A stretch of DNA of 53,543 nt, the filler included, from Sluysia triapertura (lineage: Eukaryota), in NCBI GenBank assembly GCA_046118255.1. It is 4 parts of 4 records of this genome, joined end to end, with 100 filler letters (N's around TTAATTAATTAA, not from the genome) between each part and the next. Parts side by side here need not be neighbours in the genome. Positions count along the whole stretch, not along the records: positions 1 to 14,901 come from JBJNIA010244875.1; 3 more parts are not named here. One strand, written 5' to 3'. Both the position numbers and the translations under genes were made by a program. Below the pieces are notes generated by a model. That model had not been told where the DNA came from. It did not search any database and saw only the letters and a list, made by a program, of their open reading frames with translations. Below are positions 3,600 through 53,350 of this stretch, piece after piece (within the stretch, counting starts at the first letter, position 1; every line of letters starts with the position of its first letter).

Positions 3600-3905
3600 A
3601 ATCAGTATTGCCTAGTGGGAATAGATATTGTTGGAATAAGAATGATGCAGATGAAAACCTTATTAATTTATAAGAATCTCTTTGACATTTTAAAATAATT
3701 TGAGAAATAAAATCATTGTTATTAATATTGGAAATAAATTTGAAAAATTGATAATTAACATAAGGAAGTAGAAAAGGGAATCAGATTGGTGAAGGTGAAA
3801 GCATCTAGAGCCCCTGAAATCTTTAAACATAAAGAGAGACTAAGATTAACTAATTAAAATCTTAATTAAATCTTAATTTTGTTTTTGTGAATAATGTTTG
3901 AATGA
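3600..3905 (+). repeat. Dispersed repeat family R1, copy 1
   Basis: gaaggtgaaagcat and ataaatttg..ataattaacataaggaagtaga match the reverse complement of 14530-14650 and 40500-40610. gattaactaattaaaatcttaatt..gtttttgtgaataatgtttgaat matches 14178-14245. Confidence 0.75.
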
Positions 3906-5666: not shown

Positions 5667-6305
5667 TGTTCGGTTGCCATCACAACCCTGCAAAATAATT
5701 TCAAATGTCATAATGACACCTTAAAATTATTTAAAACTATTTAAAATTATCAAAAAATTAAATAAAATCATAAAAAATGTTTCAAGACCATTTATTAATC
5801 TTTAAAATTACTTTAAAAAGAAAATAAAAATTCTAAAAAAGAAAGTTGGCTTCTAAAAATAGTATAGAAGCTTCTAGAATGTTGTAGAATATTCTAGAAC
5901 ATTCCATCGATTTTCAATGGATGATGCCTATCATATATATAAACTAGCCATTTGTAATAACATTAATTTTCAAAAACAAATTCATTTGCACAGCGCCACT
6001 TTGGTAAAATCGTTGGTAAACAAGTATTGGAAAATTATTCGTCAATTTCGATTAGGAAAATCTATTGGAAATTTTTGTAAACAGTTCACATTTAACATCC
6101 ATGCATAAAGTAATTTGTTTTTCTTAAGATTTGATATTAACTTTTTGGTATTAATATTATTGATATATACTTTATATTTGTATGTTTATTTACAAAAAGT
6201 CCTATTTTTAATAAAATCGTAATTAAGACTTGCTTTATTATGTTCTTTACATTGTTATTAAATATTATCTTTACATTTAAAATTTCCTTCTTAGTTGTAT
6301 TAACA
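5667..6305 (+). mobile_element. LTR-like dispersed repeat family R2, copy 1 (possible solo LTR)
   Basis: Begins TGTT(cggttgccatcacaacc) and ends (gtatt)AACA; contains TTCTAGAA-type arrays and a TATA-like tatataaa. Homologous to 11100-11377 (-) and 16680-16840 (+). No clean TSD. Confidence 0.55.
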
Positions 6306-6364: not shown

Positions 6365-7548
6365 CTAGATGCCTACTTCTGCATGACCCCTCAGACCTAT
6401 TATTGTTTCACTACCTGAAAAAAATTTAATAAAATCATCATCATTATAAAAAATTGAATTAAATTTTACCTTATTAGAATATACATTATGATTGTTACTT
6501 ATAAATTTAGGAGTTGCCAAATTGATGCTTTTAACTAATTTCATGATTTGTCCATTGTTCATGCCGTGTAAATATTTACATTTATTTCCATATTTTGAGC
6601 AAACTTCTAAATCAGTTGAAGAAAATGGGCAGAAGCAATGTCACTAATTTCAGGATTCATTTTTATCTTATCATTCTTGTAAAAAGGATTGACATTATAA
6701 TCTTTTTCATACATATGTAATTATGTTCATTGCTAATGACATTGAACCGTTGGATCATCATTAAGTTTTAACTTCTTTGTTCATATTACCTTGATCACAG
6801 TTAATGTTTTTCTGATGATCAAGAATCCAACTAATGTAAATTTTATAACATTTATAAAAATTATCACATTTAATTTCTTTATAAACTTTTAAAATCATAT
6901 CATTACATGGTGATTTCACAACAAAGTTTTATTTAGAACATGTTTCGGAAATGTACTAATACTGTTTGAGTACTTATTGCCTTCAACATTACAGTGCACT
7001 TTATTGTAACAGTTAAATTAACGGTTAACACAGTTACTATTTCTCAAGATTAGACATCCATAGTTATCTGAGTTACTTTGTCTTTCATTGACGATGATTG
7101 TGATCATCCTTTTATTACACTCATGAGTAGATGATTTCATAATACGTGATAAATAATTGATATTGAAAACAGGTACATCTACAACATATATTAATACAAT
7201 GATGTCATTATATTTTACACTATTTTGTGACATCAATTCAAATACGCAACTACTACATTTACTTCTGTCGAGATTACCCGAAATTTTTTGTTCGGTGTGA
7301 GATGAAATTTTATTACTAAAATAATCTTTATCAACCATTAATGATATTTCTTTAAACATTATCATTAATATTTTGTCTGTTACTAATTTTCGTCTTACAT
7401 ATCTTGATAATTCAGCATATCTATAAACCGTTAATGACGATAATATACAAGTTGTAATTTGACATATATTACTATTTTCATAAACATTCAAACCAAAAAC
7501 ATCATCGTCAGCTAAACTCGTAACACCAATTTCGATAATTTTAATCAT
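6365..7548 (-). pseudogene. Unit 1 main-arm orphan gene, intronless, interrupted; C-terminal CCCH-like motif
   Basis: The 176-aa ORF 7548-7018 continues in frame past TAA (FNCYNKVHCNVEGNKYSNSISTFPKH), then via frameshift (NFVVKSPCNDMILKVYKEIKCDNFYKCYKIYISW). 6640-6365 reads HCFCPFSSTDLEVCSKYGNKCKYLHGMNNG... Confidence 0.65.
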
Positions 7549-7764
7549 AAAGTATAATAATTGATTTACCGTGAATTTGTTTAACTATTTTTTTAACAAA
7601 GTGATATAAAATTTTTATTTTTATTACGAAGTATAATTAAGAATTAATTTTTATCGCCTTTTTAATTCTTTTTTAATTGAGCCAAATTTATTAAACTTTT
7701 ATTTGTTATTGACCATTAAACATTTATTTTTATTAATGACTAATCTTGCATACCTTTAAACTTG

Positions 7765-8180
7765 ATTGGTTGTCCAGCCAAATCACTTAATAAGAATCAG
7801 TATAATGAGTGACTTGTTTGGACAACCAATTCGCTTAGTTGGTTAATTTTTAATTGAATAAATCACAACAACTTGATGATGATGTCAACTGTGATGAGTA
7901 CCATCATCGTCAGTGACAAAATTACAATTGCAAAGTAAAGTGTCACTGTTGATTATGGCGGTAACACAGACGATTGTATTAGCTCAATTTGAATCAATTT
8001 TTATTAAGCAATGATAATGATTAAATGATAATAATAATAATAACAATAATGCTATTATTATTATTATTTTGAAATTTGAAATTTAAAAACGCATAAATTC
8101 TTGTTCTATCTTTATCTTACACGAACTTTCTTTAAATTTGCTGCTTTTCTAAACATATTAAATCTGATGAAATGAAAATT
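7765..8180. promoter_or_regulatory. Conserved hairpin module, copy 1 (hairpin B 7765-7830, hairpin A 7901-7958)
   Basis: Arms ATTGGTTGTCCA/TGGACAACCAAT and CCATCATCGTCAGTGACA/TGTCACTGTTGATTATGG. These are followed by the GGCGGTAAC motif, an (AAT)n spacer and the block cgcataa...ctttctt...ttctaaacatat...aaatgaaa shared with copies 2 and 3. Function not known. Confidence 0.8.
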
Positions 8181-9050
8181 TATTCAAAAATTGTTTCGAA
8201 AATATTATTAAGAAAAGAACATATTTGTTATTAGGTTCAAAGTATAGTTATAAAGCCCATGTCATTAAGTCAGTACTTACGTATGTGAATGTTAGAATGT
8301 TTTGTGTAGCTGATAGAACCTAACCAATATTCCTGAATTAATAATATCTCTGCTGAAAGTGTAAAAGTTCCAAGGTGTAAAATGCTGCGCAATGCGTTTT
8401 AATGTACTTTTCTTTTATTTCTGCAATTAAGGTGAATTAATTTTAGTTGTTAGATGAATTAATGTTTATAGAGCTTTTTAGGTGTTTATTGCTGTTTTTA
8501 AGTGAAAGTGAAAGAGGACGTTGTGGGAATATTAAATGTTTGAGATAGTTGATTTTGATTTTATGTAATTGTTTCTGATATTCTGGCTGAATAATATTAT
8601 TGTCTAAAGTGTTATTAATGTATGGATAGTTTTGAAATGAAAGCCTAGAATAAGATAGACGTTAGAATGAGTAATGGTGGTGTTTGGTTGTGAATGTTGA
8701 TGTTATTAGGTTTTTTGGGATGGAAAAATGTAAAATAAATATTTTGAATTATATTTTAATGTGTTTTGATGGTTTGGAGTATTATTGTAATTTGGATGTT
8801 GTGAGGTGTTGTGTAAGTGTTCTTGATGGATTTCTAGCTATGAGTTGATGGTATTTTATTATGAATTGTAGATTTGCAGTGTATTAAGAAATAAATTTTT
8901 GCTTTGTGAATTTATGAGGTTTTAATTATATATATATATTTCGGAATTTTCTCCGAATAAAATGATTTTAGTAAGGATTTTAACTCAGGCGAATGATTGA
9001 GTGAATTATTAAAGATAGTTTGAGTGTATTTTAACGCAAAATATTAATGC
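8173..9050 (+). pseudogene. Unit 1 partner arm: decayed 'VVxCxC' family ORF
   Basis: DVIRFFGMEKCKINILNYIL and VLMVWSYYCNLDVVRCCVSVLDG (8763-8830) align to RRCEVGTF...LLMLWNSIKCTCGLYVVSC. Strong G/T skew; many stops. Boundaries approximate. Confidence 0.55.
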
Positions 9051-11099
9051 GATAAACTTAGACAGAACTAGTTTACTTATTTAGTATGGATTCTTGAATA
9101 GAAATTGTAAAATCCCAAATGATAAAAATGTCCTAAGTACAGTTTCTCCAACAAGATTCTTCAGTAATAACAAGATTTTTCTAACTATCTCCACGAGAAA
9201 AGGAATGTTCTAAGTAACAATAATGTCTCCAACGAATTAGGTTCAAAATAATACTTTCACGACAAATTTGAGCACAATACATATAAACAACTTTCGTGTT
9301 TATTGTGTGTGTTTTAAACTAATTCTGTCTTTTATATATTTAATTAGAACTTTGATTTTTGCCGACAAAATAAAAATTTTCAAAAGTGTTAATTACGAAA
9401 AAAATATTATTTGATAATAATTATTTTATATTTTTGATAAAAGATAAAACTTTTAAAAGATAAAATTAATTTATTAATTAACTTTTTCTAATATTGCATT
9501 AAGATTTAATTAAAATTTTTTTAAATTTCAATTATTAAAAATTATAATAAAAAATTCCTAAAATATTTAAATGTTTTGAAAAATATTTACTTAAAATTTA
9601 CAAATATTCATTTTGCTGTGGTTTTTATATCTTAACCTTACTCAAGCAGCAAAATTCAATAAAAAGATTCGCCTATAATACACGACTTACGAATCGCGTG
9701 GCTGTAGATACGTAAAATAATAAAGTGAAAGTCTTCAAATAAAATTTGTGAAATAAGTGGATTGTTACTTAGTGACTGCAATAATATTATTTTATCAAGT
9801 TTCTTTATTATCGGTATGTTTGAAATCTTTAGAAATCTAATGTGCTTTATTATAAACTTATCTAATGTTAAACGTTGTCTTTATTAGAAAATTATTTACT
9901 TAAATAATCAATACTCTAGACTTTTACTTTAAATATTAACTTATCTAAATATTCAATTATCCAAAATTAAATAATGAACACTTCAATATTTATTATCTAC
10001 AATATTTATGACGACAATATTAACGTAAAACTAAATATTTAATTAACAACAAAATATCTAGAAATCCAATTAATTTAATAATATAATCAAAATAAAGTAT
10101 ACAATAATAATATACAATAATAAAGTTTGTCTTTTAAAAAGACCTAGTCTATTAGAGGCTCGGCCAGAAATTTTAATTAGTATTAAAATGCTTTTATCAT
10201 TGGCCTTAAGGGCCAACAGAAATAAGATATTTTGCGTAAGATTTTATGATTCTATTCGAGTTCAATCTATAAAAATTAGACTTTTTTTATAATTTTTAAG
10301 CATAATTTGTTGGCCAAAATCAATAAAATTCCGCTGCTGTATCTCGACATTAGCTTGTTGAAACTGTCGTTGAGTGTTAAGAAAAAAGTTCACAATTGAA
10401 TCCTCAGAGAAACATAAATTGAATAAGCATTTTAATCACAAAATCTTATAGGTATCTCGTTGACGTTCACTTCTTAAGTTAGTTTTTAAATAAAACAGTT
10501 TGCAATTATAACATTATTTGACGGATGTACATTTCTGAGTATGAATGCAAATGGGGTTATTTGGCGAAATATCACTAATTTTCTTTAATTCACCAAGATT
10601 TAATGTGTTGGGTTGTCATCAGTCCCTCTCAGATCATGAAATTTCTTAACGCAAATAATTTAAAATCGTTAATTTCCATAAAAGAAAATTATTTTCTAAA
10701 AATGAAGTCGAAATTTCTAGAACATTCTAGAATTTTAGATAAATTTCATTAATTTTGATTGCCTGATTACATTTAAAATATTAAAATATTACAAATTACA
10801 TTAGATTTACTACACTTATTTTTTAATATTTACAACTAAAATTCTATTGAATCTTTAATTATATTGATTAATTTTAAATATAGAAAATTCCCCTCACTAT
10901 AAAGGGGCAAAAAAGTAATTTAACAAAAGATTTTAATTTTAAGATGTTATAATTTTTATCTCCTCTGGGAAGATAAAAATTCCTTATAAAAAATAATTTC
11001 CCGCATTCATGGAAGGAAATCGATGTAGAGAATATCCAAATATCCAATATTGACTGTCGACAATATCCAAATACCAAAATGGACTGGTTAAAATCGTAA

Positions 11100-11377
11100 C
11101 AAAGTAAATAGCAAAAAACAAAGATTGCAAAAATGTTGTGATTAAAAATAACGTGTGTTGAAAATTAAACTGATGCTAGTTTATGTGCTAGTCATCAGCC
11201 AATAGAAATTGATGGAATGTTCTTGAAGCTTCTATTCTATTTTTAAAAGCTTATTTTCTTTTTTGGAAAATAATTGTTTTTAGTTATTTAGAATCTTTAA
11301 AATATTTCTTAAATGATTTTAAAATTTTTAGTGATATAAAAATTTTAGTGATATTTGGTTGCGATGGCAGCCAAACA
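11100..11377 (-). repeat. Repeat family R2, copy 2
   Basis: Reverse complement tgtttggctgccatcgcaacc...aaaaatagaatagaagcttc..acattccatc..ataaactagc matches 5667-5950. Confidence 0.7.
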
Positions 11378-11513: not shown

Positions 11514-13024
11514 TTAACGAAATGTTAACTGAGAACAATCTAACTGATTCATTTCATGAATTATAGATTTTAATTTGGAGCAAGATAATATGATTAAGTC
11601 TTGAGACGCTAGACCTATATGAAGACAATTTCTTTTAATGATAAGTTCTTTAACTTGGGAATAAAAATAATTATAATCTCTATTCATATCATTTGATCTC
11701 ATTTTTTTATGACTGTTAAATTTAATATCTTTATGCAAGTTTAAAATCAAAGATTCAATAAAGTTTATGAAATAAACAAATAAAACTGTAAAAATTTCTT
11801 TATTTTTAAACGAAACAATTAATTTAAAATTTATTGCAGAATCCTTGTGTAACGCAATTGGCCTTGCTTTTAATTTGTCGTCTAAATAAAAATTAAAATT
11901 AAAATTGTATAATGAGTTTACAAAAGAAAAATTTACACTGTTATTACACCACGAAATTTCCGAATTCCACACTTTTGTATTTGGATCTTGGGACGTCAAG
12001 CAGCATGAGCAACTGACTACATGGCGAGAAGATTTGTAGTATCGAACATGGGTAATTCTAACATAAATTCAGTGACAATATTATAAAATTCATGAATCGT
12101 TATGTTACTCACGTGTCTACTAATACTCATAAAAACATCTTTAAAATTATCAATAATATCTTTAACACTTTGAGCAAATTTATCATCTTTAAACTTTTCA
12201 AAAACAGTATTCCTATTATGATCTAAAAGTATTGACAAACTCGATGCTCTTAGAATACTCATGAGACATAGATTACATGAGGTAATTATAAGATCAGTAA
12301 TCATAATGTTACGAAAATTAATGTGATGACTAGTCATATGATATATGAAAAAGCTATAAACATTTATTACATATTTAGTTGTTAACATATAAAAAAATAA
12401 ATAATTAATGAATACGAACAGATATGTAGCATTTAGTAAAATATCATCTTTAACTGTATATTTCATGTTTTCTTTACTAAGAACGATCATTAAAATGTTG
12501 AATGCCACGGTGATATTGCCTTTGTCACGACTGTGGTCTTTTAGAAAATAGATTAAGAAAATAATGAATTCATACGCCATATTAACTTGATTTATTATAA
12601 TATTACTCTTCTCCTTTTTGAATATAGTCTTTATAATTAAACGATTGTCGAAAATTATAATGTATCTCGTTACCGAGTTGCATGTTAATAACTGAACTTG
12701 TTCCTTGATTAAAAACAAACGATCATGGTATGTGCGAATTGGATCCGATGATATAAAACTATAAACTTGTAACAATCTCTTCATCCATTCCAATTTTGGA
12801 AATATGCAACCTGAATTGAGTACATGCATAATTTTTGAACCAGATAATTTGTTGTTGTTCTCAGTTAATACTAAAGAATACTTCGTAGGGATATCAACTG
12901 TTCGACACATAAGATTATATCTCTCTCGCAAAAACTTTATAAATTCATTCTTTGATTGACTTGAAAATATAATGATTTTTATTTCTAGATTTAGTGAGAA
13001 ATAGAACTGTGAATTTTCATCCAT
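11514..13024 (-). pseudogene. Unit 2 main-arm orphan gene (~500 aa if one frameshift near 12020-12028 is repaired); F-box-like N-terminus
   Basis: The 335-aa ORF and the 161-aa ORF overlap in different frames; the second frame reads ...HVVSCSCCLTSQDP. The joined sequence FYNIVTEFMLELPMFDTTNL(L)HVVSCSCCL aligns with FYISSILLMLWNSIKCTCGLYVVSCNCDL (17384-17578). The N-terminus FSLNLEIKIIIFS resembles the F-box core LPxEIxxxIF. Could be an intact gene if the frameshift is an assembly error. Confidence 0.65.
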
Positions 13025-13193
13025 CTCTTGTCAACTGTAAATTTTTCAAAAATTTCTGGTTTAACCAATTTAATAACATAAAAATTTTTTTGAAATTTAT
13101 AACAATCTTCGTTCTGTTGGTTCGACAAAAAATTGCAAAATGAAAAACTTATATTTGAGTTTTTATCAAATTCTTTTTTTAATTAGATTAATG

Positions 13194-13657
13194 ATTGGTT
13201 ATCCAACCAAATCGTGTATATGATGTCTAGACATACACGTTTTTGGTTGGATAATCAATATAGTAGTTAACTGTTGATGATTAAGCCAACAATGATGGCC
13301 GTCATCGTCATCGCTGATATATAATTTTAAATGTTAAACGAAATTTCACCGATGATGATGGCGGTAACAAAGCTGGTTTGACGTACAATTTGTGCTGCTT
13401 AAATAATTAGTATTATTATTATTATTTTGATTATTATTATTGTTACTGTTATTATTTTTATTATTATTATGATTACAATAATTATTATTATTATATACGC
13501 ATGCATTTCTTTATATTCACAATAAAACAAGATCTTTCTTTCTCTTCTTGAAACTTCTAGACATATTTTGACTTGAAATGAAATAGAAAATAATAGAATT
13601 GGATGTAATAACAGCAGTAATAAGATGAACAATGTTATGGTTATTGCTGTTATTACA
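13194..13657. promoter_or_regulatory. Conserved hairpin module, copy 2 (B 13194-13259, A 13299-13364, C 13604-13657)
   Basis: B: ATTGGTTATCCAACCAAA-TCGTGTAT / ATACACG-TTTTTGGTTGGATAATCAAT. A: CCGTCATCGTCATCGCTGA/TCACCGATGATGATGGCGG, then TAAC. C: TGTAATAACAGCAGTAAT/GTTATTGCTGTTATTACA. Confidence 0.85.
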
Positions 13658-14110
13658 CTGCATAAACATTTGGATTCCTTAAAAACTGTACACGAACTTG
13701 CTTTTTGAATATTTTAAATTTCTAACATATTTTAACTAAAAACCTTTAAGTGGAGGTTGATTTGAGTATATGTTAAAGAGATGAATTGTAGTCTACTCTT
13801 GCTATATTCGAAAGTTAATCGCACCTTGTTCTCTTCTTGTTTCTGAGTGGTATTGTCTTTGTGCTGTTAGTGATTATGTGATAATAAATGATGAATATGA
13901 AAGGTTGCAGTTGATTCGAAGATGTCGAGTGGGTAATTTTAAGTGGTTAAGGTTTGATTATTATAAATATAGAGTAACATGTTTTTAATGGATCTGTTGA
14001 TGTAATGTGATTGTATTAGGTGTGAATGAGATTTGGATATTATGACTTATTTTTGGTGGATGAAGTGTTTTGTGAGTGTATTGGAGATAGATATGTGAAT
14101 GTTGAGGTGC
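13600..14110 (+). pseudogene. Unit 2 partner arm: decayed 'VVxCxC' family ORF
   Basis: NSSNKMNNVMVIAVITLHKHLDSLKTVHELA and INDEYERLQLIRRCRVGNFK (13884-13943) align to KSNDNRVYGARVIVAASLYKMNSYKTVFNFA and MNNVFEMLYLNRRCEVGTFY of the unit 3 partner. Confidence 0.65.
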
Positions 14111-14159
14111 TGAAAAATTAAATTAATTTTTTTATAAAATTTAATAGTTATAAAGTTTG

Positions 14160-14901
14160 TCCACCACACTAAAAATAGATTAATTAATTAAAATCTTAAT
14201 TACTTTAATTAAGAAAAAGTACGTTTTTGTGAATAATGTTTGAATACAAAGTTGAAAGTATACACATTTGTTTTCAAAAGACCTTTAGATAAAGATATAA
14301 TATGATCGGGTTCATACAAAACAGTCTAGGTCGTTTAAGACATGAAAGAAATTGATTGATAAAATTGGATGAAGAAGATGTGTAAAATTTAAAATGTGAA
14401 GTTATTTTTGGCGAATTTTTTATTTTCAATTTGTAAGAATAGTTTATATTTGTTGTGTCACCCTTAGTTTATTATATTATCTGTATTAATTAATTAATCT
14501 ATAGATTTTATGATGGTTGAAAAGTATTTTATATGCTTTCACCTTCAACCCTTTGATTTTTTCATCTACTTATTTATGCTAGTTATTATTGTATCAAATT
14601 TATCTTTATTATCATTAACAATGATTCCATTGCTCAAATGTTATAAAGATTTATTAAATTACTCAAAGTTCTAAAGTACTTATCAAAGTTTTAAGAATAC
14701 TTAAATAATCTCAAGCTTCCACAAGTTCTCACACCTCATAAATATATTTGGAACTCAAAAATATTCGTTAGCTCTCAACATTACCTTAGATACTTTCATC
14801 TTCCTAATTCTTACTCCATCATTATTTTATTGTTTTACTCATTGTTTTGTATCAATTCTTTCTCCATTTTCCAATTCCACATCTTCTTCATCCAATTCAT
14901 T
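14160..14901. repeat. Repeat family R1, copy 2 (rearranged, two orientations)
   Basis: 14530-14900 is colinear with 40500-40920 (atgctttca, tatctttattat, ctcaaatgtt.taaagattt, ttggaactc, ccaattcca). 14178-14245 matches 3844-3903. Confidence 0.75.
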
Positions 14902-15001
14902 NNNNNNNNNNNNNNNNNNNNNNNNNNNNNNNNNNNNNNNNNNNNTTAATTAATTAANNNNNNNNNNNNNNNNNNNNNNNNNNNNNNNNNNNNNNNNNNN
15001 N
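14902..15001. other. Artificial contig-join linker N44-TTAATTAATTAA-N44
   Basis: Identical 100-nt construct at three places; the 12-mer gives stop codons in all six frames. Confidence 0.95.
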
Positions 15002-15008
15002 CATAGTA

Positions 15009-15059
15009 AAATCCAACGGCTGGCCCTAACCGGTAAGTCCAGTACGTTGGTGGACTCAC
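15009..15059 (+). repeat. Dispersed GC-richer repeat R3, copy 1
   Basis: 48/51 identical to 47573-47623; internal stem CCAACG..CTGG/CCAG..CGTTGG. Confidence 0.85.
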
Positions 15060-15648: not shown

Positions 15649-16679
15649 ATAATTTTGCATAAATTTATGCATTTTTATTCAAATTTGTAAAACTAACGAT
15701 TAATAATAATATTTGATATAATTTTAATAAATTCGATAATAATAAAGAATTTAATATAAATATTTTAATTTCGACAAAATAAGAATAATAATAAAATAAA
15801 ATAGTTCATTAAAGTACTAAACTACAGGGTTACGACCTTTTAAGGTCATTTGATTATTGAAAAGTATAAGGTGAGAATTATTGATTTGTAGATATTATAA
15901 AATTTTTGTTGCATATTTAAAAATATTTGAAACGATTGTTATAAAACCAATTTATGAAACTTTTGGAGAAAGTTGGTAAATTACAGCAAATCTAATTTTG
16001 ATCAAACCATCAATTACAGTTCTTATATCAAATTCTGGATTCTTTATTAGATAGTTTTTTCGATTAGTCGTTAGTTTTAAAGTTGTTAAGGCTGACACAT
16101 TTTAAATGTGTCGAGTAAAATCGTACTTAATTTTATAAAATTTATAAGATTAGATTATTGTTTCATAATAATAATCAGATAATATTATTTTATTTGAGTT
16201 GTTAATATTAAAGAATTTAATATTCGTATTTCACAATACAAAATATCATCTTTTAACATTCAAACATTTTTAATTATAAATTGTAACATTGAAATTATTT
16301 GTAATTAATTGAATTTACAAGATTTTAATTCAGATAGTTTTAAAGTTTTTTTAAAATCCCATAAATTGTTGAATAAACCTAACTTTTAAAGGCAGAAAAT
16401 TATATTTTCAACAGATCCGTATTTGTGGTAAATACTTTTTTAACCTCGATGATAGCGGACTTTAATACATATCGAAATTTCAAATTACTAAGAATCTTCT
16501 TTAACAATATTAATCTCGCTGAAAAACGGAAAGTTAATCTCACTTTTATAAATATAAACAATTTTAAAATACGTTGGAACAATTTTCATACCTGTTTTAA
16601 AATCGGATTGTAAAATATATTATTTATGTAGATCCTGTTTAAATATTTTAGGTTGATAACACAAACTTCTAAAATTTAA

Positions 16680-16840
16680 AATACCATCACAATCTTTAAA
16701 ATTATTTAAAAATCTTATTTTCCAAAGAAGAAAAGTCGTTTCTAAAAATAGAATATACAATTCTAGAATATTCTATTGGTTGATTAATAGTTCATTAATA
16801 GTTACCATCTTATTCGCCACTTTAGAATTTGTCAGCCATT
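16680..16840 (+). repeat. Repeat family R2, copy 3 (internally deleted)
   Basis: ccatcacaa..ttaaaattatttaaaa..tctaaaaatag..ttctagaatattcta..cgccacttt shared with 5667-6005. Confidence 0.65.
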
Positions 16841-17109
16841 TTACTGTCAGTCATTTTTGTTATCAGCGATCTGTCAACTTTGCTTAGCAGCAGGTAACTC
16901 ATCAGAGTTTAAAATCAATAATTTTGTCAATTCCGAGCGATTAAATCAAGATTATTCGTAACAATATTTGCAATTTTCCGTAAGCTATTTTTATTAAGGA
17001 AATATTACCTTTCTTGAAAATTAATATATTAAAATCCACTCAAAATCTCTACGTTGTAAGTCGTTTACTATTACCAGACCATGCTTAAAACATTTCGTTG
17101 TAGGTTAAG

Positions 17110-17990
17110 TGTTAAGAAAACCACAATAAAGAGGATCGATGGGTGGCAAATACTCATAATCACTAAAAATTTATTAAAATTTCACAACATCTAAATCACA
17201 ATCATATTTAACACTACGAAACCACATTAATTAACTCATAAGAAACAAGACTCGGCAGTTACAATAATCCAACAACAAACACATCTCAAACAATCCATCT
17301 AATACTTTCGAACCTTCATTTCACACTACTCTGTAACAATCAATACCAAATATTTAATAATATTTACTCAATAGTTTATTGGCTTAAATCAAATCACAAT
17401 TACAACTTACAACATATAAACCACAAGTACATTTAATACTATTCCACAACATTAATAATATACTCGAAATATAGAAAGTACCTACTTCACACCTTCGATT
17501 CAAGTACAACATTTCAAACACATTATTCATATATGCACACAGAACAACAACACTAAAAACACCAAACAAAATAATCATACGAAGAGTTATATTGTAATTG
17601 CCCTTTTAAATTCAATAAATTACAACCTTCTCAATAAGCCCTTTATCCACAATATTTCAATGCATAAATCTTGTTTTCAAATATAGATTTCAATCAATGT
17701 ACAAGAACTTATTCTAACATTCTCTAATTTACTCCAAGATTCATATCAATTATTATACCTTCAAAGGTTAAATATATTTATCAATTCTTTTAAGACAATT
17801 CTTACTCAGAAATTTAGTCTCTAATACATTTCAATTCATTTCAACATGTTAAAAATCAGTAAATAGTTAAGCAAAATTGAATACAGTTTTATAAGAATTC
17901 ATTTTATACAATGAAGCAGCAACGATAACTCGAGCACCGTATACCCTGTTATCGTTGCTCTTTCATACAAAATCAGCAATCTTTATTTCA
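17110..17990 (-). pseudogene. Unit 3 partner arm: decayed 'VVxCxC' family ORF
   Basis: Includes ORF 17384-17578 (…MNNVFEMLYLNRRCEVGTFYISSILLMLWNSIKCTCGLYVVSCNCDLI) and upstream KSNDNRVYGARVIVAASLYKMNSYKTVFNFA. C/A-rich on +, i.e. G/T-rich on its sense strand. Confidence 0.65.
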
Positions 17991-18340
17991 TTTTATTTTT
18001 ATATGTTTAGAATAAGTATAAAAAGAAAGAAAAGATCTTCTAGAATACATTTAAAAAGACTTTTATGCGGTTTTTCCTTTTATTGTTAACAATAATAACG
18101 GCAATATTGTTGTTGTTATTATTGTTATCAATTTTAAAGTAATATAAATTTAATCTTTATAATTTTTACAAAATTAGTTCAACGAGTTGCTGCCATCATC
18201 AGTATTGATACTGCTTGTCAAAATTTTCATTATCGTGTCAATATTGATGATGGTTAATCATCAGCGATTACATTTGTGCATGTCACCCAATCAGAGCTGA
18301 TATTGATTAATGTTCGTTCTCGGGGTTCTGATTGGATGAC
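17918..18340. promoter_or_regulatory. Conserved hairpin module, copy 3, inverted (C 17918-17959, A 18193-18253, B 18282-18340)
   Basis: C: AGCAACGATAAC/GTTATCGTTGCT. A: CCATCATCAGTATTGATAC/GTGTCAATATTGATGATGG, preceded by GTTGCTG. B: GTCACCCAATCAGAGC/GTTCTGATTGGATGAC. Shared block tttcattt..atatgtttagaa..aagaaag..agatctt..ttatgcg. Confidence 0.85.
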
Positions 18341-18490
18341 CAGTCAGCTATTATTCTTACTAGCTAATTTTAAATTTTTTGGCAAAAGTTCGTAGATGAT
18401 AAAAATTTTTAATTAAAAGAGGAGATATACTTTATACTACTGGGCAAAAAAAATTTGAATTACGTTTTAGAATCTTCAATTACATAAATA

Positions 18491-19563
18491 ATGATTAACT
18501 GTGCTAATGTAGCTATATTCTACAAATATTCAAAAGCATTGGGAGCAGAATCCGGCTATCGTAAAGCTCAAATGAAACGGAAATTGTTATCAAGAATTAT
18601 GGATCATAGATATCTTATAGTAAATGCAAAGAGTCATCCACAAGAGTTTAGAAGGATTAAAATTGTAACGATTCAAGAAGATAATGAACAAGAAGAAATC
18701 TTGTCACAATGTTTAAATTACATTAAACAAATATATGAACTAATAAACAATACTGATCATTCTTACATCCCAAATTATCATACATTTATAATAAAAGAAG
18801 ATCTGATGACTCTTCAAACGATGCTCGCTAATAATCTATGTGATTCAATAATAGATGATACTCCGAACGAAGTTATAAAACATTATCATGACATTATTGT
18901 TAGATTTCCACGTAGTGAACGTATTATGGGTCACGTGACTCAAACAGCGGTAGACGAACTTGTTAAATATGTATATAAAGTTAGATCAGTAAAATTAGAG
19001 TCAGATAAACCGGTTAAAGATGTATATAAACTTAAATCAACAAAATTCGAAGTAGACAAACCTATTGGAGATATGTATCTAATTAACCGATTGACAAACT
19101 TGTCACAGATATATATAAAGTTGAACGAATCTGTATAGAATTCGATAAATCGACTACTACGGTGGTAAAGTGCATTTTGTACACGACCCAAGATGATATA
19201 GACATTATATTAAGCAGAATAATGAGAGCAAATAATAAAGTTATCCAACAACAGTATCGATTCAGCCAAAATGGAAATATGAGTTTAGTCGCAGTTAATA
19301 ATGAAAATCTAGAAGAGAACATTATCAGTAAAATATTATCAGTAAAATTCTGTTTTGTTTACGTTGATCATTATCTAAACTATTTAAATTTTTTAGGATT
19401 ATGTTCCAGTTATTGGCTCAAGGTCATTACCAAGGATGTGGTGCGAAAGATATTGCGAAATGACAAAACGAATAATATGATCCCAAAATGTATTAACAAA
19501 TTTTTTAAAAGAATTCCTAATGTGTTAATAATTATTAGTTATAGTGTGCTTAATACTTGTTAA
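18491..19563 (+). pseudogene. Unit 3 main-arm orphan gene, frameshifted within a 51-bp repeat; may extend to 19886
   Basis: The 215-aa ORF is joined to the 133-aa ORF by a frameshift near 19085; the second frame continues the repeat (IDKLVTDIYKVERICIEFDKSTTTVVKCILYTTQD). Confidence 0.65.
18953..19150 (+). repeat. Coding 51-bp (17-aa) tandem repeat, 4 units, third shortened to 38 bp
   Basis: Units start at 18953, 19004, 19055, 19093 and (partial) 19144: DELVKYVYKVRSVKLES / DKPVKDVYKLKSTKFEV / DKPIGDMYLIN.. / DKLVTDIYKVERICIEF / DKS. Confidence 0.85.
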
Positions 19564-22500: not shown

Positions 22501-23656
22501 ATCTCAAAATTAACAATAATTTTTATAACAATATTAAGCGCACAATAATCAGTCCTAAAAAACCAGAGATGACGCTACAAAAATCAAAATATCAATATCT
22601 AAAAAGTTAAAAATAATAATAATACTTATATATTTTCGAATAATTTTATTCTAACTTATTAATAGAGCTTTATTTAATCACTTTATCAATAGCTTAAAAA
22701 GTAAAATTAAAATAATAATCAAATATTTAAATTAAAATATTTCAAAATAAATCTGGCAGAGAGTCTTCCAAAAATCAATTTATCAATAATTTAAAATTAA
22801 AGTTAAAATAATAATCAAATATTCAACTTAATCTAAATATTCAAATTAATTTTTAAATTAGAATTATTTTTCCTACTCAAGTAAAATTAAATTAAATAAA
22901 ATGAAAAAAATGGCAGAACTGTTAGAATGTGAATTGTAGCTCATTATTATTATTGTGCTGCGAAATTTTCAAGTTTTTATACTTACTCATCATCCAAACA
23001 ATCCTGAGTTTCACAATCAAACACTCACTCACACAAATCGAGAATTAGACCGACAATTACATGGTACAGCATGTCAAACTTCATTAGGTACAAAACACAA
23101 GAAATTGATTTATTATCAACCATCATTTTCGTATACTCTACTCTGCAAATCTTTTAACCTTGCAAAAATAATTCTAGAGCTCAGCTCGCCTAATAGATAC
23201 GACTTAAATCTGGACGAAGACGGTCTACAAGGATTTTAAAATTAGTCACGTAGTAATTTATACGTAAAGTAGTAATCTGTCACGTAATCATTATTTTTAA
23301 CAATTATGTTCAACTTTCAAAAAAATCTTTAGAAATCAATTACAAATATATTGAAATTTAAAATGATATCTTAATTTAGCCTTTAATGAAAAACTCAGAT
23401 TTTTAGTTAGCCTTTTACGGTCGAACCAAATAATTATGTATTTTAAACGTTAAGCTAGCCTTGTTACGGTCTAGCAGGGAAACAATGATTTTATTTATTC
23501 ACAATGAAAGAACAGTAAGACCCTAAAGCATATTGCAAAATTATACGAAGTGTTTACTAGATAAAAATAATTAGTTTGCCACTTAAATATATCTTGTGGA
23601 TTTTATTTTAAAATTAGTTTAACTTAGCCTTATTTAAATCAACATCATTTTGTTGT

Positions 23657-23811
23657 GGTAAAAAGGCCTAAAGTGCCATTTGGTAAAAATGACTATAATA
23701 TAATAAAATCGTTAGACAGGGCTGATATATCAGTGGTAGAGCATCGAAATGTCTAACGATTTTATTTTATTATAGTCATTTTTACCAAGTGGCACTTTAG
23801 GTCTTTTTACC
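23657..23811. repeat. 62-bp-arm inverted repeat with a tRNA-5'-half-like 31-nt loop
   Basis: Arms 23657-23718 and 23750-23811 (3 mismatches); loop GGGCTGATATATCAGTGGTAGAGCATCGAAA. Confidence 0.9.
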
Positions 23812-25624
23812 TCCACAATTTGATTTCATTAATTCAGTAATATCTTTAGATTTTGAAGTAATTGGGAGTTCCATTGAAATATTTGTAGTATCATTAATAA
23901 TTAGTCTAATTTTTATTAAGTCTTTGGGATTCTTTTCGCTTTCTTTTCTAGCTTTCTTTCTATATAAACTATCTTCTTTACTTAATATAGCAAGTATTAA
24001 TTTAATATCATAGCCATTTTGAATACTCAATTTTAATTTTAATAATTCATCCAAATTTTCGTCTAAATATTTAGCTTTTGTTATACCACTAGCCAAATCT
24101 AATAAAAATTATTCGACCTTTTTGTCTCTTTGTAACTCTGTGGTATCCATTTTCTCGTTTGCTAAAATACACATTCATTCATTTCCTAATTTATTAATTT
24201 TTTTTAATTTTTATTGATTATTTCTTCTTCCATATCTTCGCTGGCACTTCTTCTTCTGAATCGATTTATATTTCTTCTGCTCGTAATTCTTTGTCATTTG
24301 TTTGTCTGGTAATATCATTTTCTACACCTGATATAACTTCTTGATCATCACTCTCAATAGATTTCTTCTGAAAATCCTTCTCTTATGTTTCATCTTCTTC
24401 TCTGTTACTCAGTTCACTTTCTTTATCATTCATTTCTTCTTCTGATTCTGGCTTTGTCTTTTTATTAATCTTTTCTGTTTACTTTCCCCTTTATCGATTA
24501 ACTGTTGAATTCTTTGTTTCATCTCTTCATTTGTAATTACATCTTTGATTTCTTTAATATGTTCGATCATTTCTTCTATAGGTTTATTGAATATTTCTTG
24601 AATTCTTACTTGAATTGATTGTATTGTTAATTGATTTTCTTTTCTTTCTTTTTGTTCTCTTCGTTTTCTATCTTTCTTGCATATCTATCATGCATATAAC
24701 TCATAAAGACTTCTTCTTCATCTTGTTTATTTTTGAATCGATTTTTATCACAATCTAATCCAGTGAAATAGAATTCTCGTAACGTAGTATTATTTTCTTC
24801 ATCTGTTATCAATTATCCTCTGCTCCACTAAATTTTCGCATTTCTGGTAAGACCATTAAAGGACGAATATCTCTTGCTAATTGTGAAATACAATCTTTAA
24901 AATCATTTGGCAAAGCCATGTAGTGTCTTAATGTAGCTCTATAATCGTCAAAAGGTACAATTTGTTTAGCAATCTTATTCAAATATTACAATTCTTATCA
25001 AATTAGAATTTATTATTATGCTTTATTCTTTAAATCTTATAAAACCCGTAAATTAATTCGTATTAATTGAGTAATCACTTATAAAACTTATTCAAGTAAA
25101 ACTTATTCGATAATAATAAAAACTTATTCGTATAAAATTAGAACTTATTCAACCAGGTTATAATAAAACTTGTACTATTCGTACATAAAACTTATTTAAT
25201 AATGACAAGGAACAATAAAACTTATAGAAAAATCGTCTATAAACTTCAAAACTTATAGAAATTTATGTAATTTATAATTTAGAATACTTTTGCTTATTAT
25301 AATCAGAACTTAATAGGGTTATGTATAATTTACTTTCTTATTCAAATATATATCTTTATTTTATTTTAATGTATGTTTATGCTGCTAGTCTTCACTCTGG
25401 GCACCAGTTATAATATGTGGAATTTTGTTATGAGATTGGATCAAGATTTGCTTTATCCTTGCCGTCAATTCTCTGTGTTACTCATTAAAGGGCCAGCACA
25501 TAGATTCGCATCTTTTGAGAAAGGAAAAACAAGAATTGGAGGCTTTGATATTTAATTTTAATGCTACTTTTTTCTTAGTTTTGGATAGCTATTGACTCTT
25601 CTCAATTACGATTTTATTATAACT
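23797..25624 (-). mobile_element. Gypsy-type LTR retrotransposon 5' part: LTR, PBS, repetitive leader, decayed gag-like ORF
   Basis: LTR 25406-25624 has terminal inverted AGTTATAATA...TATTATAACT. A PBS-like TGGTGCCCAG overlaps the LTR end (tRNA-Lys-type TGGCGCCC with one transition). The leader has repeated AAAACTTATTC (25080-25260). A broken charged ORF runs 24980-23797. No second LTR seen. Confidence 0.75.
25406..25624 (-). repeat. 5' LTR (219 bp) with AGTT...AACT ends
   Basis: 10-bp terminal inverted repeat AGTTATAATA; adjacent PBS-like sequence at 25397-25406. Confidence 0.75.
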
Positions 25625-27713: not shown

Positions 27714-28355
27714 ATGTATAAAAATTGTCCGTTAATGTTCTGTAATTTTTATTGTATTCACACAAGCGTGTCACATTATACTTATGGATTTCTTTCTCTT
27801 AATTTCATGCATTTAGATGGTGGTGCCTTATTGGAGAAGCACAGGATTAGTATTCCAAGAATTATTTATCAAAATTTGAGATTTGTTCAAAAACGTACAA
27901 TTCCTAAACAACCTCCTGATGTGTCTCCAATAAAGCATTTGAAGCACAAAGTAAAGGAAAAATCTAAGTCTCAATCATGGCGAGAGTTATTTATAGAAAC
28001 TATTTATGATTACGCTTCAATAATTATGAATTATTTTTTACGAGGTACACAATTTGGGGCTGTATATTCGATCTTGGCAACATTTGGATACGGATTATCT
28101 TTTTGTTTAGTGTATTTGTAGGTTAATAAATAAGAAAAATAATTGTTTTAGTATTATTGTTTTAGTATTACCTTAAGTCCAATTAAGGTAAATTTAGGAG
28201 AAACATCCGCAACTATTATAGATACTATTTTGCTGGCAAAATTATTAGTACCATTCAAAATTTTGTTGACAACTTATATCAACAAAAAACTTAAGAATCG
28301 TGGTATTTCGTTAGAAAAATATATAAAAGAATTTTTTCAGTCTGATGATAAATAA
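27714..28355 (+). CDS. Spliced host gene, 172 aa, predicted membrane protein, weakly DUF1279/FAM210-like
   Basis: Exons 27714-27741, 27817-28117 and 28166-28355 (GT-AG introns of 75 and 48 bp; 519 nt, in frame). Basic N-terminus, then GTQFGAVYSILATFGYGLSFCLVYF..DTILLAKLLVPFKILLTTYI, resembling the FAM210 AxxKxxxPxRxxxT segment. Intron 1 is in frame and optional. Confidence 0.75.
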
Positions 28356-29312: not shown

Positions 29313-29384
29313 ACTTTATGAGATGAGTTATAGTGAATATTGTGTGATGAATTATGATGGATACCGTATGACGAGTTCCCTACA
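29313..29384 (-). repeat. Repeat R4 (LTR-like TG start), copy at contig edge
   Basis: Reverse complement of 53259-53330 (TGTAGGGAACTCGTCATACGGTAT...AACTCATCTCAT). Confidence 0.8.
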
Positions 29385-40289: not shown

Positions 40290-40930
40290 AAATCTCACTA
40301 TATTTAATCGCAAAATCAAACAAATTATTACAATGAGTTTTTTCTACTTTATAGACAATATAACTCAATTTGTTACTTCTTTAGTAAATGAGATTTTAAT
40401 TAATTAATCTATTTTTAGACTTAATCTTATTTCGTGCTTAAAGGTTTTATTAAAGTTCTAAAGTTATTTAATACATTATAAGGCACTCAGGGATTTCTAA
40501 ATGCTTTCATCTTGATTCCGATTCCTTTTTCTACTTTATATTAATTATCAGGGTATCTTTATTATTAATAACAATAACTCCATTTCTCAAATGTTTTAAA
40601 GATTTCAAATATTTTCTAAATTACCCAAAGGTCTCGAATGCTTATCAAGTTTACAATAATACTTTAAGGTTTTAAATGATTTCAAGGTTCACAAGTTCAA
40701 AGCTACCTTAATACCTCTCGATATTTTCCAAGCTCATCTCAAGTCTCTATAAGGTCTCGGCACCTTATAAAGGTTTTGGAACTCCAAGATATTCTTTAAC
40801 TTTCAATTATAATTATTTTCATCTTCGTCATTCTTAGTCTAGCAATATTTTATTTTTTCGCCCATAGTTTTGTATTCATTCTTTCTACATCTCCAATTCC
40901 ATATATTCTTCACCCGTTTTCTATTCATCA
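40290..40930 (-). repeat. Repeat family R1, copy 3
   Basis: Colinear with 14480-14900 and reverse complement of 3690-3880. Confidence 0.75.
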
Positions 40931-42393: not shown

Positions 42394-42493
42394 NNNNNNN
42401 NNNNNNNNNNNNNNNNNNNNNNNNNNNNNNNNNNNNNTTAATTAATTAANNNNNNNNNNNNNNNNNNNNNNNNNNNNNNNNNNNNNNNNNNNN
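42394..42493. other. Artificial contig-join linker
   Basis: N44-TTAATTAATTAA-N44. Confidence 0.95.
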
Positions 42494-42619: not shown

Positions 42620-43060
42620 TTATAAGAGTTAAAATGGGTTTTAGGTCGTTAAATTGATTTTTAGTGATTATTGCGAAATAATTTTTTACATGCTATAATG
42701 TTTTTGCAAATGGTTATGGATGATGAGTATGGTTGTGTGACGTGGAATTGGAATGTTATTGTTGATTGTTGTTTTAGGTGAGATGATCTTTGTTTCTGAA
42801 TGTTATTGTATTTGTGATTTGTGAAATTCGTGTTATGGTTCTGACTTGTTTGTTAAGGTATTTAATGAGTGAATGTTTTGAATTGTTTGAAATGGATGTG
42901 AGAATTTATTGAGTTGGGAATGTTAAGATATGGATTAATTTGTTGTTGGATGTAGTTTGGTGAAATGTTAAGATTGTATATTATTGTTTTATGAGGTGAA
43001 TTGAGTGATGTTTATATTTGAAAGATATTGTTGTGAGTGCTATTATTTTGAGGAGATTTA
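42620..43060 (+). pseudogene. Unit 4 partner arm: decayed 'VVxCxC' family ORF
   Basis: IRVMVLTCLLRYLMSECFELFEMDVRIY*VGNVKIWINLLLDVVW (42826-42960) aligns to MNNVFEMLYLNRRCEVGTF..LLMLW and RVGNFK. Strong G/T skew. Confidence 0.55.
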
Positions 43061-45079
43061 ATTTAATCTTAAATTTAACATAATTAAAGTTAAATTTATA
43101 TAGGTTGTAATGCCTTCACTTCCAATAAGAGAGCTGCTTGTCACATTAGTGGTAAACACTGCGCTTGAGGATTTGTCTTTAGCAACCGATGCAATGCAAC
43201 TATTATTGCCATTAGTGATCTACGTTTTTATTATTTGGGTATCGACATTTTTCATGTTGTATTATCCCTGTATTTTTCTTTTTTAATCTACTGCATACGG
43301 ACAGTTATTCATAACTTTGAATTTATATATCGTTATTAAAGAATAATTGATAATTTGTTATTTTTGTTACTTTTAAAATATATACCGAGAATACATGTTA
43401 ATTTAATTGTTGAATTATCATTGAATATTTTGAATAAAGACACAACATATAGAATTAGTCATAATTTTGGAGATATGTATAATGTAAATGATTCCTCATA
43501 TTTCAAATATTGATCGCACAGCGTACTCAGGTGATCTAAAATATAATAAAATTAAAAATACTACTTTATTGCATCATGGCATTTAGAAAATAAACATTTA
43601 TGTAATATAAATAAGAAGTTTAACAAATGAAAATTTCCACTACTCTGCGACAGAATGCATAAATTAAAAATAGTACAACTTTAGCAAAGAAAAAACTAAA
43701 ATTTGAAATAAATTTTTAATTGCTATTTTGAATTGAATTTTATAGACTAGTCACACTTAATTAAAACAGAAAATTTCGTAGTGAAATTCAACACACAAAT
43801 TTCAAACAATGAAAACTAATTTCATTAATATGAATTAAAATTATTAATTAAATTAATAATATTATTTACATAAATATATACTGTGATGATTTATTTTATA
43901 AAAATATTTGTTTTCAGGTTTTATTTGAAGTAAAATTATTTTTAATAAAAGTATTTAATATTTTTATACATTCTGAATATATTATTTATTAATTATATTA
44001 ATAATAATCTTTAAAAAATTTTTGTTTTTAATCTAACATAATCTACTTATATATACTACTATTGTCATGTAAACCTAAAACGTTCCAGTTATTATTGCTC
44101 ATCAGACATTTTATCGAATTTCATAATGAACTGATCTTATATTCTAATCTTGAGCAGTCAATTTCCTGAAGTCTGNNNNNNNNNNNNNNNNNNNNNNNNN
44201 NNNNNNNNNNNNNNNNNNNNNNNNNNNNNNNNNNNNNNNNNNNNNNNNNNNNNNNNNNNNNNNNNNNNNNNNNNNNNNNNNNNNNNNNNNNNNNNNNNNN
44301 NNNNNNNNNNNNNNNNNNNNNNNNNNNNNNNNNNNNNNNNNNNNNNNNNNNNNNNNNNNNNNNNNNNNNNNNNNNNNNNNNNNNNNNNNNNNNNNNNNNN
44401 NNNNNNNNNNNTATTTAGTGTTTCTTTAGAAATAAACACGAATTAATTAAATATGTTAACATGAATTATTGTTACATAAAATAATATAATTATCATAATA
44501 TAATTATAAACAATGAAGAATGTACTAAAAATAGAATTATATTAAATAATAATCAATAAATTGACGAAAAAGATAGAGTAAATATTGACATCAATGACAT
44601 TTATTATTAAAATCAGTATTATCATTATAACTGGAACTAAAAATATGCATAGGAATAAGAAACATAATACAAAAGAAATGAGAAAGAATACAGAAATAAA
44701 ATAATAAACACAACCTTACACCTTCAATTTTCTCTTCAATTTTTTTGCCTGTATACTCGAAATAATTTTGTTTAATCAAACTATTTTTCAAATATTATCA
44801 GTGCGATGGCTCAGCCTTAACTTACAATTTTAACATTCATTAAGTCAAACATCAGCTTAGATCAATCCTATAATATTTTTATTACATGCAATTTTCATTA
44901 TTCACATTTTTTACAATACTGACACGTCTTATAATTCTATCACTCACAAATTCGCTTAAACTACCAAATACAATCATTTTTAATTCTAGTATATCACAAA
45001 CATTACAACCTTTCAGTTATACATTTGGTGTTTTGTTTTACATACTTAATCGACGTAATTTGTTAAGATAAGAAGTTGA

Positions 45080-47572: not shown

Positions 47573-47623
47573 AAATCCAACGGCTGGCCCTAATCGGTAA
47601 GCCCAGTACGTTGGTGAACTCAC
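47573..47623 (+). repeat. Dispersed repeat R3, copy 2
   Basis: 48/51 identical to 15009-15059. Confidence 0.85.
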
Positions 47624-53258: not shown

Positions 53259-53350
53259 TGTAGGGAACTCGTCATACGGTATTCACCATAATTCATCACA
53301 TAATATTCACCATAACTCATCTCATATAGTTCATCACAACTCATCACTTA
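53259..53350 (+). repeat. Repeat R4 (LTR-like 5' end TGTAGGG)
   Basis: Matches the reverse complement of 29313-29384. Confidence 0.8.

Follow-up and report, generated by a model that had tools for sequence, protein, structure and literature searches.

A hairpin with compensated arms, repeated ahead of three orphan reading frames of Sluysia triapertura, as a candidate microRNA precursor

What holds the two arms of a short inverted repeat in register while its copies diverge, and what would such a hairpin be doing at a near-constant distance from otherwise unrelated genes? The question is raised by a stretch of 53,543 nucleotides of Sluysia triapertura (GCA_046118255.1), here called the window, which consists of four parts of the genome joined by filler, has ~23% GC, and contains many simple repeats, few long frames and eight N runs. 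A module of ~600 bp with 3-4 hairpins is repeated three times in it, in each case ahead of a different open reading frame (ORF); the final element of the module, hairpin B, is a 66-73-base inverted repeat present once per module copy. All comparisons reported below are of these three copies within the window. The components of the three cassettes are as follows:

7763-7832, no strand assigned: hairpin B copy 1, with its 22-base block at 7763-7784.
13192-13261, no strand assigned: hairpin B copy 2, an inverted repeat with 27 Watson-Crick pairs.
18277-18346, no strand assigned: hairpin B copy 3, the weakest fold, with its 22-base block at 18325-18346.
13192-13213, no strand assigned: 22-base block of copy 2, a candidate mature small RNA (5p on the plus strand, 3p on the minus strand).
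13296-13367 (copy 2), 7893-7967 (copy 1) and 18187-18259 (copy 3), no strand assigned: hairpin C, which also covaries, both partners being changed in 5 of 20 consensus pairs.
13400-13495, no strand assigned: (TAA)n/(TTA)n tract, or hairpin A, weak in copy 2; clear copies at 8028-8067 (copy 1) and 18082-18132 (copy 3).
13495-13602 (copy 2, minus strand), 8085-8194 and 17966-18074: block E, conserved, not a hairpin.
13604-13657 and ~17915-17960, no strand assigned: hairpin D, with no clear copy in cassette 1.
13807-14131 (plus strand), 8481-8897 and 17106-17584: G+T-skewed tract, on the strand opposite to the ORF.
12017-13024, minus strand: 335-codon orphan ORF, its start 167 bases beyond hairpin B copy 2; a 184-codon overlapping frame follows at 11514-12068.
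7018-7548, minus strand: 176-codon orphan ORF, its start 214 bases beyond hairpin B copy 1.
18491-19138, plus strand: 215-codon orphan ORF, its start 144 bases beyond hairpin B copy 3, with overlapping frames to 19886.
6566-6631, minus strand: C-x9-C-x6-C-x3-H zinc finger motif, in cassette 1 only.

The cassettes show a shared order when read in ORF orientation: a C+A-rich tract of 300-500 bases is followed by hairpin D (copies 2 and 3), block E, the (TAA)n tract, hairpin C, hairpin B, 144-214 AT-rich bases and then the ORF, this last distance from module end to ORF start being found in all three cassettes, whose ORFs are the three longest of the window. The eight most stable non-overlapping folds among 4357 segments of 76 bases all fall inside the three modules. 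In the tract beyond the hairpins, the strand that faces away from the ORFs' sense strand is rich in G and T, with a GC skew of 0.52-0.78. Skew is tied to the direction of transcription by a general transcription-linked mutation bias, and the tract would fit transcription directed away from the ORF, but also a strand displaced in replication. The scanned frames gave no match to a transposase or reverse transcriptase, the cassettes showed no recognizable element end, and no terminal repeats enclose all three cassettes in the window; the contig of copy 2 ends at a gap, at position 14902. A fourth, lone G+T-skewed tract resembling the cassette leader lies at 42662-43079, is cut by the gap 42394-42493 and has no adjoining hairpins. 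A separate repeat, R, occurs near all three cassettes in inconsistent orientation (5796-5943, plus; 10632-10784, plus; 11173-11328, minus; 16661-16815, plus) and consists of alternating GAA/TTC unit arrays, which we take to resemble heat-shock elements, with a small 5' palindrome and a CCAAT-like end. It was considered as a terminal repeat of the cassettes and rejected for its orientations and for the E-value of 0.53 of the only possible right-hand copy for cassette 3.

The ORFs themselves stand out by length: their stop-to-stop frames of 337, 216 and 188 codons are the longest in the window, the longest in each of 30 shuffles being 90-185 codons, and they show a coding-like first-position purine bias of 0.62-0.68. 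They are mutually dissimilar (best E 0.013 among all frames of at least 40 amino acids) and their products are orphans in the searches made. The 335-residue product gave no word-search hit, none at E 0.001 among 1.84 billion representatives and none in viral contigs, with one weak Atlas lead at 0.76; the 215-residue product had no match in the Atlas or in viral contigs and only a cyclophilin-like stretch at E 0.5; the 176-residue product had no match among longer proteins, those of near length being left out, and one PDB row at E 0.025. In Pfam, 0 of 15, 0 of 8 and 0 of 5 proteins reached the cut-off, and the zinc finger motif of cassette 1 scored below it against zf-CCCH (E 0.018) and zf-CCCH_UNK (E 0.19). 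AlphaFold models of ORF products have pLDDT values of 37 and 35, and Foldseek searches with them returned nothing at E 0.001. A resemblance to the cyclin box, noted by eye, found no support in the Pfam or Foldseek searches. Splice acceptors stand just before two of the three ATGs, with a chance of ~0.11 each, and are given no weight here. In cassettes 2 (12017-12068) and 3 (19087-19138) the overlap between the first ORF and the frame that follows has the same length, 52 bases, which is probably a coincidence and possibly a shared splice or frameshift geometry. Elsewhere in the window, 27714-28355 (plus strand) is a probable two-exon host gene, with a likely short GT-AG intron near 28120-28165; by eye it looks FAM210-like, but Pfam and homologue searches of its separate exons gave nothing.

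Hairpin B is a specific and well-folded feature of these modules. All six arm strings quoted in a sequence-only reading of this locus are present, and the size of 59-66 nt given there agrees with stem spans of 66 (7765-7830), 66 (13194-13259) and 59 (18282-18340). A strand-neutral alignment of arm to arm gives 23, 27 and 19 Watson-Crick pairs for copies 1, 2 and 3. The arm motif occurs without mismatch at 7763-7780, 13192-13209 and 18329-18346; with up to three mismatches it has eight matches in the window, all of them in hairpin B copies, against 0.44 expected, and a covariance model built from the three copies matches in the window only those copies and their reverse strands, the next site having an E-value of 0.1. 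Fold z-scores of copies 1, 2 and 3 are -7.4, -8.1 and -2.1 on the ORF strand (6 of 200 shuffles fold as well as copy 3) and -5.3, -7.0 and -3.6 on the opposite strand. The spacing of the arms varies by a single base, as against 45 bases for the distance from hairpin C to hairpin B. The inner stems are unrelated across the copies (1 of 12 and 3 of 14 positions invariant), yet paired within each.

Three pair swaps that keep the stem had been named from the sequence, and all are real: G-C to A-U at alignment columns 14/66, U-A to C-G at 13/67, and C-G to U-A at 20/60, where copy 1 is mismatched. Each is a double transition within the 12-bp core. A fourth, at 8/72, is not counted because it lies beside two broken pairs and is absent from copy 3's own fold. 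RNAalifold, the check that the sequence-only reading had suggested, gives 26 pairs and nine double changes on the ORF strand, those of the inner stem being in columns with almost no identity, and 16 pairs and four double changes on the opposite strand; we count as robust the three swaps in the 12-pair core, three sequences falling short of R-scape grade. Over the 16-pair outer stem, 9 of 500 shuffles reach four double changes, a control figure that is not a probability, and slid registers give 0-1. When the arms were made to drift independently (40,000 simulations under 12 parameter settings), at least three double changes together with at least 32 of 36 cells paired arose with P = 0.00005-0.0018, and three double changes alone with P up to 0.16 in the most extreme setting. 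Moreover, each 5' arm pairs most strongly with its own 3' arm (-32.8, -29.3 and -24.5 kcal/mol, versus -10.6 to -25.8 for swapped partners).

Thus, the arms were held matched while the copies diverged, since the swaps outdo drift and own-partner pairing is the best. The proposal that either selection on pairing or arm-to-arm conversion is at work is upheld by the own-partner energies, the shuffles and the simulations as far as the matching of the arms goes. The swaps alone are no proof of selection on an RNA, because template switching can create and repair stems in a single step, as set out in the relevant passages of bioRxiv 10.1101/2021.04.15.439925; in this respect above all, the sequence-only reading gave the swaps too much weight.

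One arm carries a 22-base block with 20, 17 and 15 of 22 positions identical between copies in ungapped comparison, against 14, 10 and 9 of 22 in the partner arm and a background around the block of 4-7 of 18 on the inner 18 bases and 5-6 of 20 on the outer 20. Of 18 columns in the conserved arm's outer part 13 are invariant, compared with 7 of 16 for the partner arm and 0 of 9 for the loop. MicroRNA precursors are conserved in the order mature, star, loop, and the same order is seen here, i.e. block, partner arm and then a loop at background. The 18-base consensus of the 3' arm proposed earlier, with its CCAAT-like box, is retained as regards the box and outgrown as regards its extent, being only part of the 22-base block. 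The 22-mer duplexes have 17-18 pairs and loops of 24-29 bases in all three copies under both strand readings, and each copy lies within the size range of animal microRNAs (arms of 20-27 nt, at least 16 pairs, a loop of at least 8 nt); the remark that the hairpins are of pre-miRNA size was accordingly right, and the block strengthens it. For comparison, the parts of the MirGeneDB account that treat precursor structure give arms of 22 +/- 1 nt with 19 +/- 1.6 pairs, U as the base at both position 1 and position 9, a first U that is mismatched where the mature arm is 5p, and loops that are unconstrained in some phyla (PMC11701709); animal microRNAs are recognized by 20-26-nt reads from both arms, 2-nt offsets and uniform 5' ends, in the relevant sections of bioRxiv 10.1101/076190.

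The sense strand of the ORF, on which the hairpin was first read, has no support over the opposite one, G-U and A-C juxtapositions being 5:5. Counts of G-U pairs on the ORF versus the other strand are 5:5 for hairpin B, 8:6 for hairpin C and 24:22 over 12 stems (P 0.88), the last being a tally of low power in which two stems barely fold and decay after copying would blur a bias; the wobble preference for one strand expected of a structured RNA is seen neither in hairpin B nor over the 12 stems. The better-folding strand is the opposite one for all four hairpins of copy 2 and the ORF strand for seven of eight in copies 1 and 3. Read on the opposite strand, the 22-mer would be the 5p arm of a 72-73-nt precursor and starts with U in all three copies; the minimum-energy folds of copies 1 and 2 leave this U unpaired, and these two copies have the same nucleotides 2-8, from which copy 3 departs at a single base. 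Read on the ORF strand, it would be the 3p arm of a 68-69-nt precursor and starts with G, and in copies 1 and 2 the block extends exactly 2 bases beyond the last pair. The seed (nucleotides 2-8) has one variable position of seven on the opposite strand versus four of seven on the ORF strand, so that the opposite strand gives the 22-mer the closer likeness to a mature microRNA, a difference that is not significant (P 0.24). The lower stem is good in a single copy on each strand, with 3, 10 and 4 pairs per 15 bases on the opposite strand and 8, 5 and 4 on the ORF strand. Over the six readings, a basal UG and a CNNC motif are each found in none and an apical UGU in two; such motifs are common among animal microRNAs and not obligatory. 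In hairpin C the better-kept arm is a ragged block of ~27 bases, the most conserved end of which would be a seed only on the ORF strand, the reverse of hairpin B.

Taken together, these features lead us to propose hairpin B, tentatively, as a lineage-specific candidate microRNA precursor in a multicopy cluster, a reading that is quite possible while falling somewhat short of probable. It would account for the length of the block, its one-sidedness, the spacing and the clustering; it fails on strand bias and on the lower stems, two features that decay in old copies. The cluster would be transcribed as a single primary RNA, from which cutting by Drosha and Dicer would release the 22-mer. Selection would then keep the sequence of the 22-mer, but only the pairing of its partner arm, for which template switching might supply the matching change in one step. 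The RNA and the ORF may share a promoter in the 144-214-base spacer and be transcribed from it in opposite directions, an orientation of the RNA only slightly preferred over the ORF strand. No Rfam family reaches its threshold, and the microRNA rows obtained are all sub-threshold, of a kind that any long hairpin attracts. Since the 22-mer is nearly palindromic and has a CCAAT box, a DNA promoter site or template-switch repair retains part of the probability. These three leading readings (microRNA, DNA and promoter) are not mutually exclusive, and the probability left over by the alternatives goes to other structured RNA.

The best-surviving alternative, which we regard as rather unlikely, is that hairpin B acts as DNA, either as a structural end, or a replication signal, of a mobile element now decayed or as a functionless inverted repeat, with its arms re-matched by template switching, in which case the swaps would say nothing about selection on RNA. 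The strand symmetry of the wobble pairs speaks for this, as do DNA folding energies of the two strands that lie within 1.5 kcal/mol of each other, inter-cassette similarity that halts at the outer base of hairpin B, and inner stems that are paired within copies despite being unrelated across them; the G>C and T>A skew of 0.52-0.78 beside the module fits an often single-stranded strand. The mechanism is available in that template switching makes or repairs a stem in one step, according to the sections of bioRxiv 10.1101/2021.04.15.439925 on this process. However, the copying of arms leaves unexplained why the conservation covers exactly 22 bases of one arm and why the spacing is constant, inside a cluster whose hairpins are of similar size. 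Nor did the window yield a third arm copy at the far end, such as HINE/DINE-1 elements have, a terminal repeat enclosing all three cassettes or, among the scanned frames, a match to a transposase or reverse transcriptase. Were the DNA reading to hold, hairpin B would be a clean case of compensatory swaps arising without RNA selection, and a warning for covariation-based RNA discovery in repeats.

Under the next alternative, which is unlikely, a protein would bind the conserved arm, a 7+4+7 dyad containing an NF-Y-type CCAAT box, and this arm would be the promoter site of the orphan gene downstream; conversion would keep the other arm, a partial copy in inverted orientation, matched to it. The sequence CCAAT(C/G)(A/G) occurs at least once in each of the three hairpin B copies, and 4 of the 10 such sites in the 53.5 kb lie inside them, an enrichment that represents one ancestral event spotted post hoc. 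The site precedes each ATG by 144-214 bases, which is compatible with a CCAAT box at -60/-100 from the start site, the position given in the parts of PMC12065363 dealing with these boxes. The dyad's 4-base spacer contains two of the three swaps, and that the three longest ORFs each follow a module has a chance of ~8e-8. The dyad is marginal, however: the 22-mer as a near-palindrome has 6 of 7 pairs and folds on itself with up to -6.9 kcal/mol, with a shuffle P of 0.05-0.07. The block extends 4 bases beyond it, and the outer CCAAT of copies 1 and 2 is altered in copy 3, whose box sits on the other half. A binding site would, moreover, need neither a paired inner stem nor hairpins C and D. The dyad accounts for the one-sidedness of the block and for its placement ahead of the ORFs; it leaves the inner stem, the 4 further bases and the additional hairpins unexplained.

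These readings could also be combined. We consider it improbable, albeit worth stating, that the whole is a mobile cassette in which an exchangeable orphan gene stands head-to-head with a microRNA cluster belonging to the cassette, the 22-mer serving both as mature RNA and as CCAAT promoter site and the arms being re-matched by template switching; if so, it would be a portable means of delivering a new gene and its small-RNA regulator at once.

Hairpin B is not mir-219 (RF00251), and a descent of its copies from this conserved animal microRNA is very improbable: copy 1 gives the best Rfam match of the module (27.4 bits, ORF strand, with identities on both arms), but this is half of the 54.5-bit threshold and has an E-value of 0.06 over the window, copies 2 and 3 have no mir-219 row, the consensus seed is absent from all three copies, and the likeness to mature mir-219 lies on the less conserved of the two arms. 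That the pairing and swaps are chance products of AT-rich, low-complexity DNA may be dismissed as close to negligible: the sequence is ~23% GC and rich in simple repeats and the copies are only three, but z-scores of -8.1 and -7.4, eight motif matches against 0.44 expected, a drift probability of at most 0.0018 and a covariance model that finds three sites alone (next best E 0.1) all stand against it.

No relatives of the module were found outside the window in metagenome contigs, viral and prokaryote contigs or a phage collection, the last of which gave no match. Pattern searches did return eight loci in metagenome contigs for hairpin C and two viral and one prokaryote locus for hairpin B; the first ten are of 35-55% GC and have no BLAST match to the module, and on all 11 the hairpin B model scores at most 23.7 bits, on another palindromic repeat, and they were set aside. 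The loci L002, L003 and L005-L008 are unrelated long palindromic repeats, the arms of which hold what we take to be a hammerhead-like core, as in Penelope-like elements. An origin of the cassette from a virus segment likewise found no support in the viral-contig searches. Within the window, a hammerhead ribozyme of Penelope-like elements was rejected for hairpin B, there being no Rfam match and no CUGANGA/GAAA core in it; of seven loose hammerhead core patterns in the window, one spans hairpin C copy 3 and one lies in block E copy 1. A Helitron 3' end (a hairpin followed by CTRR) was rejected by eye, as spacing and letters differ between the copies.

The window has other repeats. An inverted repeat at 23644-23824 has 75-base arms that are 91% complementary and encloses what looks by eye like a tRNA fragment; ARAGORN finds no tRNA in it. 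A broken series of charged, coding-like frames (23797-24980, minus strand) enters this repeat and has no Pfam match. A GC-rich, stem-capable element of 51 bases occurs twice (15009-15059 and 47573-47623, 94% identity), with no Rfam match; a 72-base inverted pair (29313-29384 and 53259-53330) is 93% identical and G+T-rich on one strand; and a third, decayed repeat family is found at 3664-3809, 14530-14893 and 40496-40915 with 72-77% identity.

Among known systems, the non-autonomous Helentrons DINE-1 and HINE (PMC4067079, as far as its descriptions of element ends go) are alike in their terminal inverted-repeat hairpin, inner microsatellite and association with gene fragments, and the subTIRs of the mite HINE have a palindromic arm, as does hairpin B. 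They differ in that their arms are 3-22 bases apart, versus ~40 in hairpin B, and in that extra hairpins occur here. Elements of this class insert at TT, have defined ends and have an autonomous Rep/helicase partner. Neither the second subTIR nor the 3' stem-loop of such elements was found at the far end of the cassettes in the window, where the contig of copy 2 runs to the gap at 14902; a 12-mer arm search at up to two mismatches gave 20 matches against 17.4 expected, those with zero or one mismatch all being in hairpin B. These searches give no support for hairpin B as a HINE/DINE-1 end. Inverted repeats maintained by template switching (bioRxiv 10.1101/2021.04.15.439925) are alike both in double changes that keep the stem and in wholesale differences of the inner stem; template switching is, however, a mutation mechanism and not a function, and in the form given in the relevant part of that work it predicts no 22-base block on one arm. 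NF-Y/CCAAT promoters carried by transposable elements, in the portion of PMC12065363 concerned with them, resemble the present case in that a dispersed repeat places a CCAAT box ahead of a gene, and the presence of such boxes in mobile elements is well established; unlike these, the candidate box here lies inside a covarying hairpin.

The closest parallel to the favoured reading, that of a candidate microRNA precursor, is presented by the fast-evolving multicopy microRNA clusters of Tribolium, which are alike in their dispersed, rapidly diverging short hairpins, in lacking homologues elsewhere and in having one arm better conserved, and in which clusters show conservation of the seed, all as presented in the parts of PMC4691753 on these clusters. 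Those clusters are defined by small-RNA reads, whereas hairpin B is known from its sequence. A search of the literature by general terms yielded no description of an element like hairpin B, which is weak evidence that none is in print. Unlike the Tribolium clusters, as far as they are described in those parts of PMC4691753, each cluster here abuts a different orphan ORF at a near-fixed distance and has no strand bias, and it is this fixed link of a hairpin cluster to orphan genes that is new.
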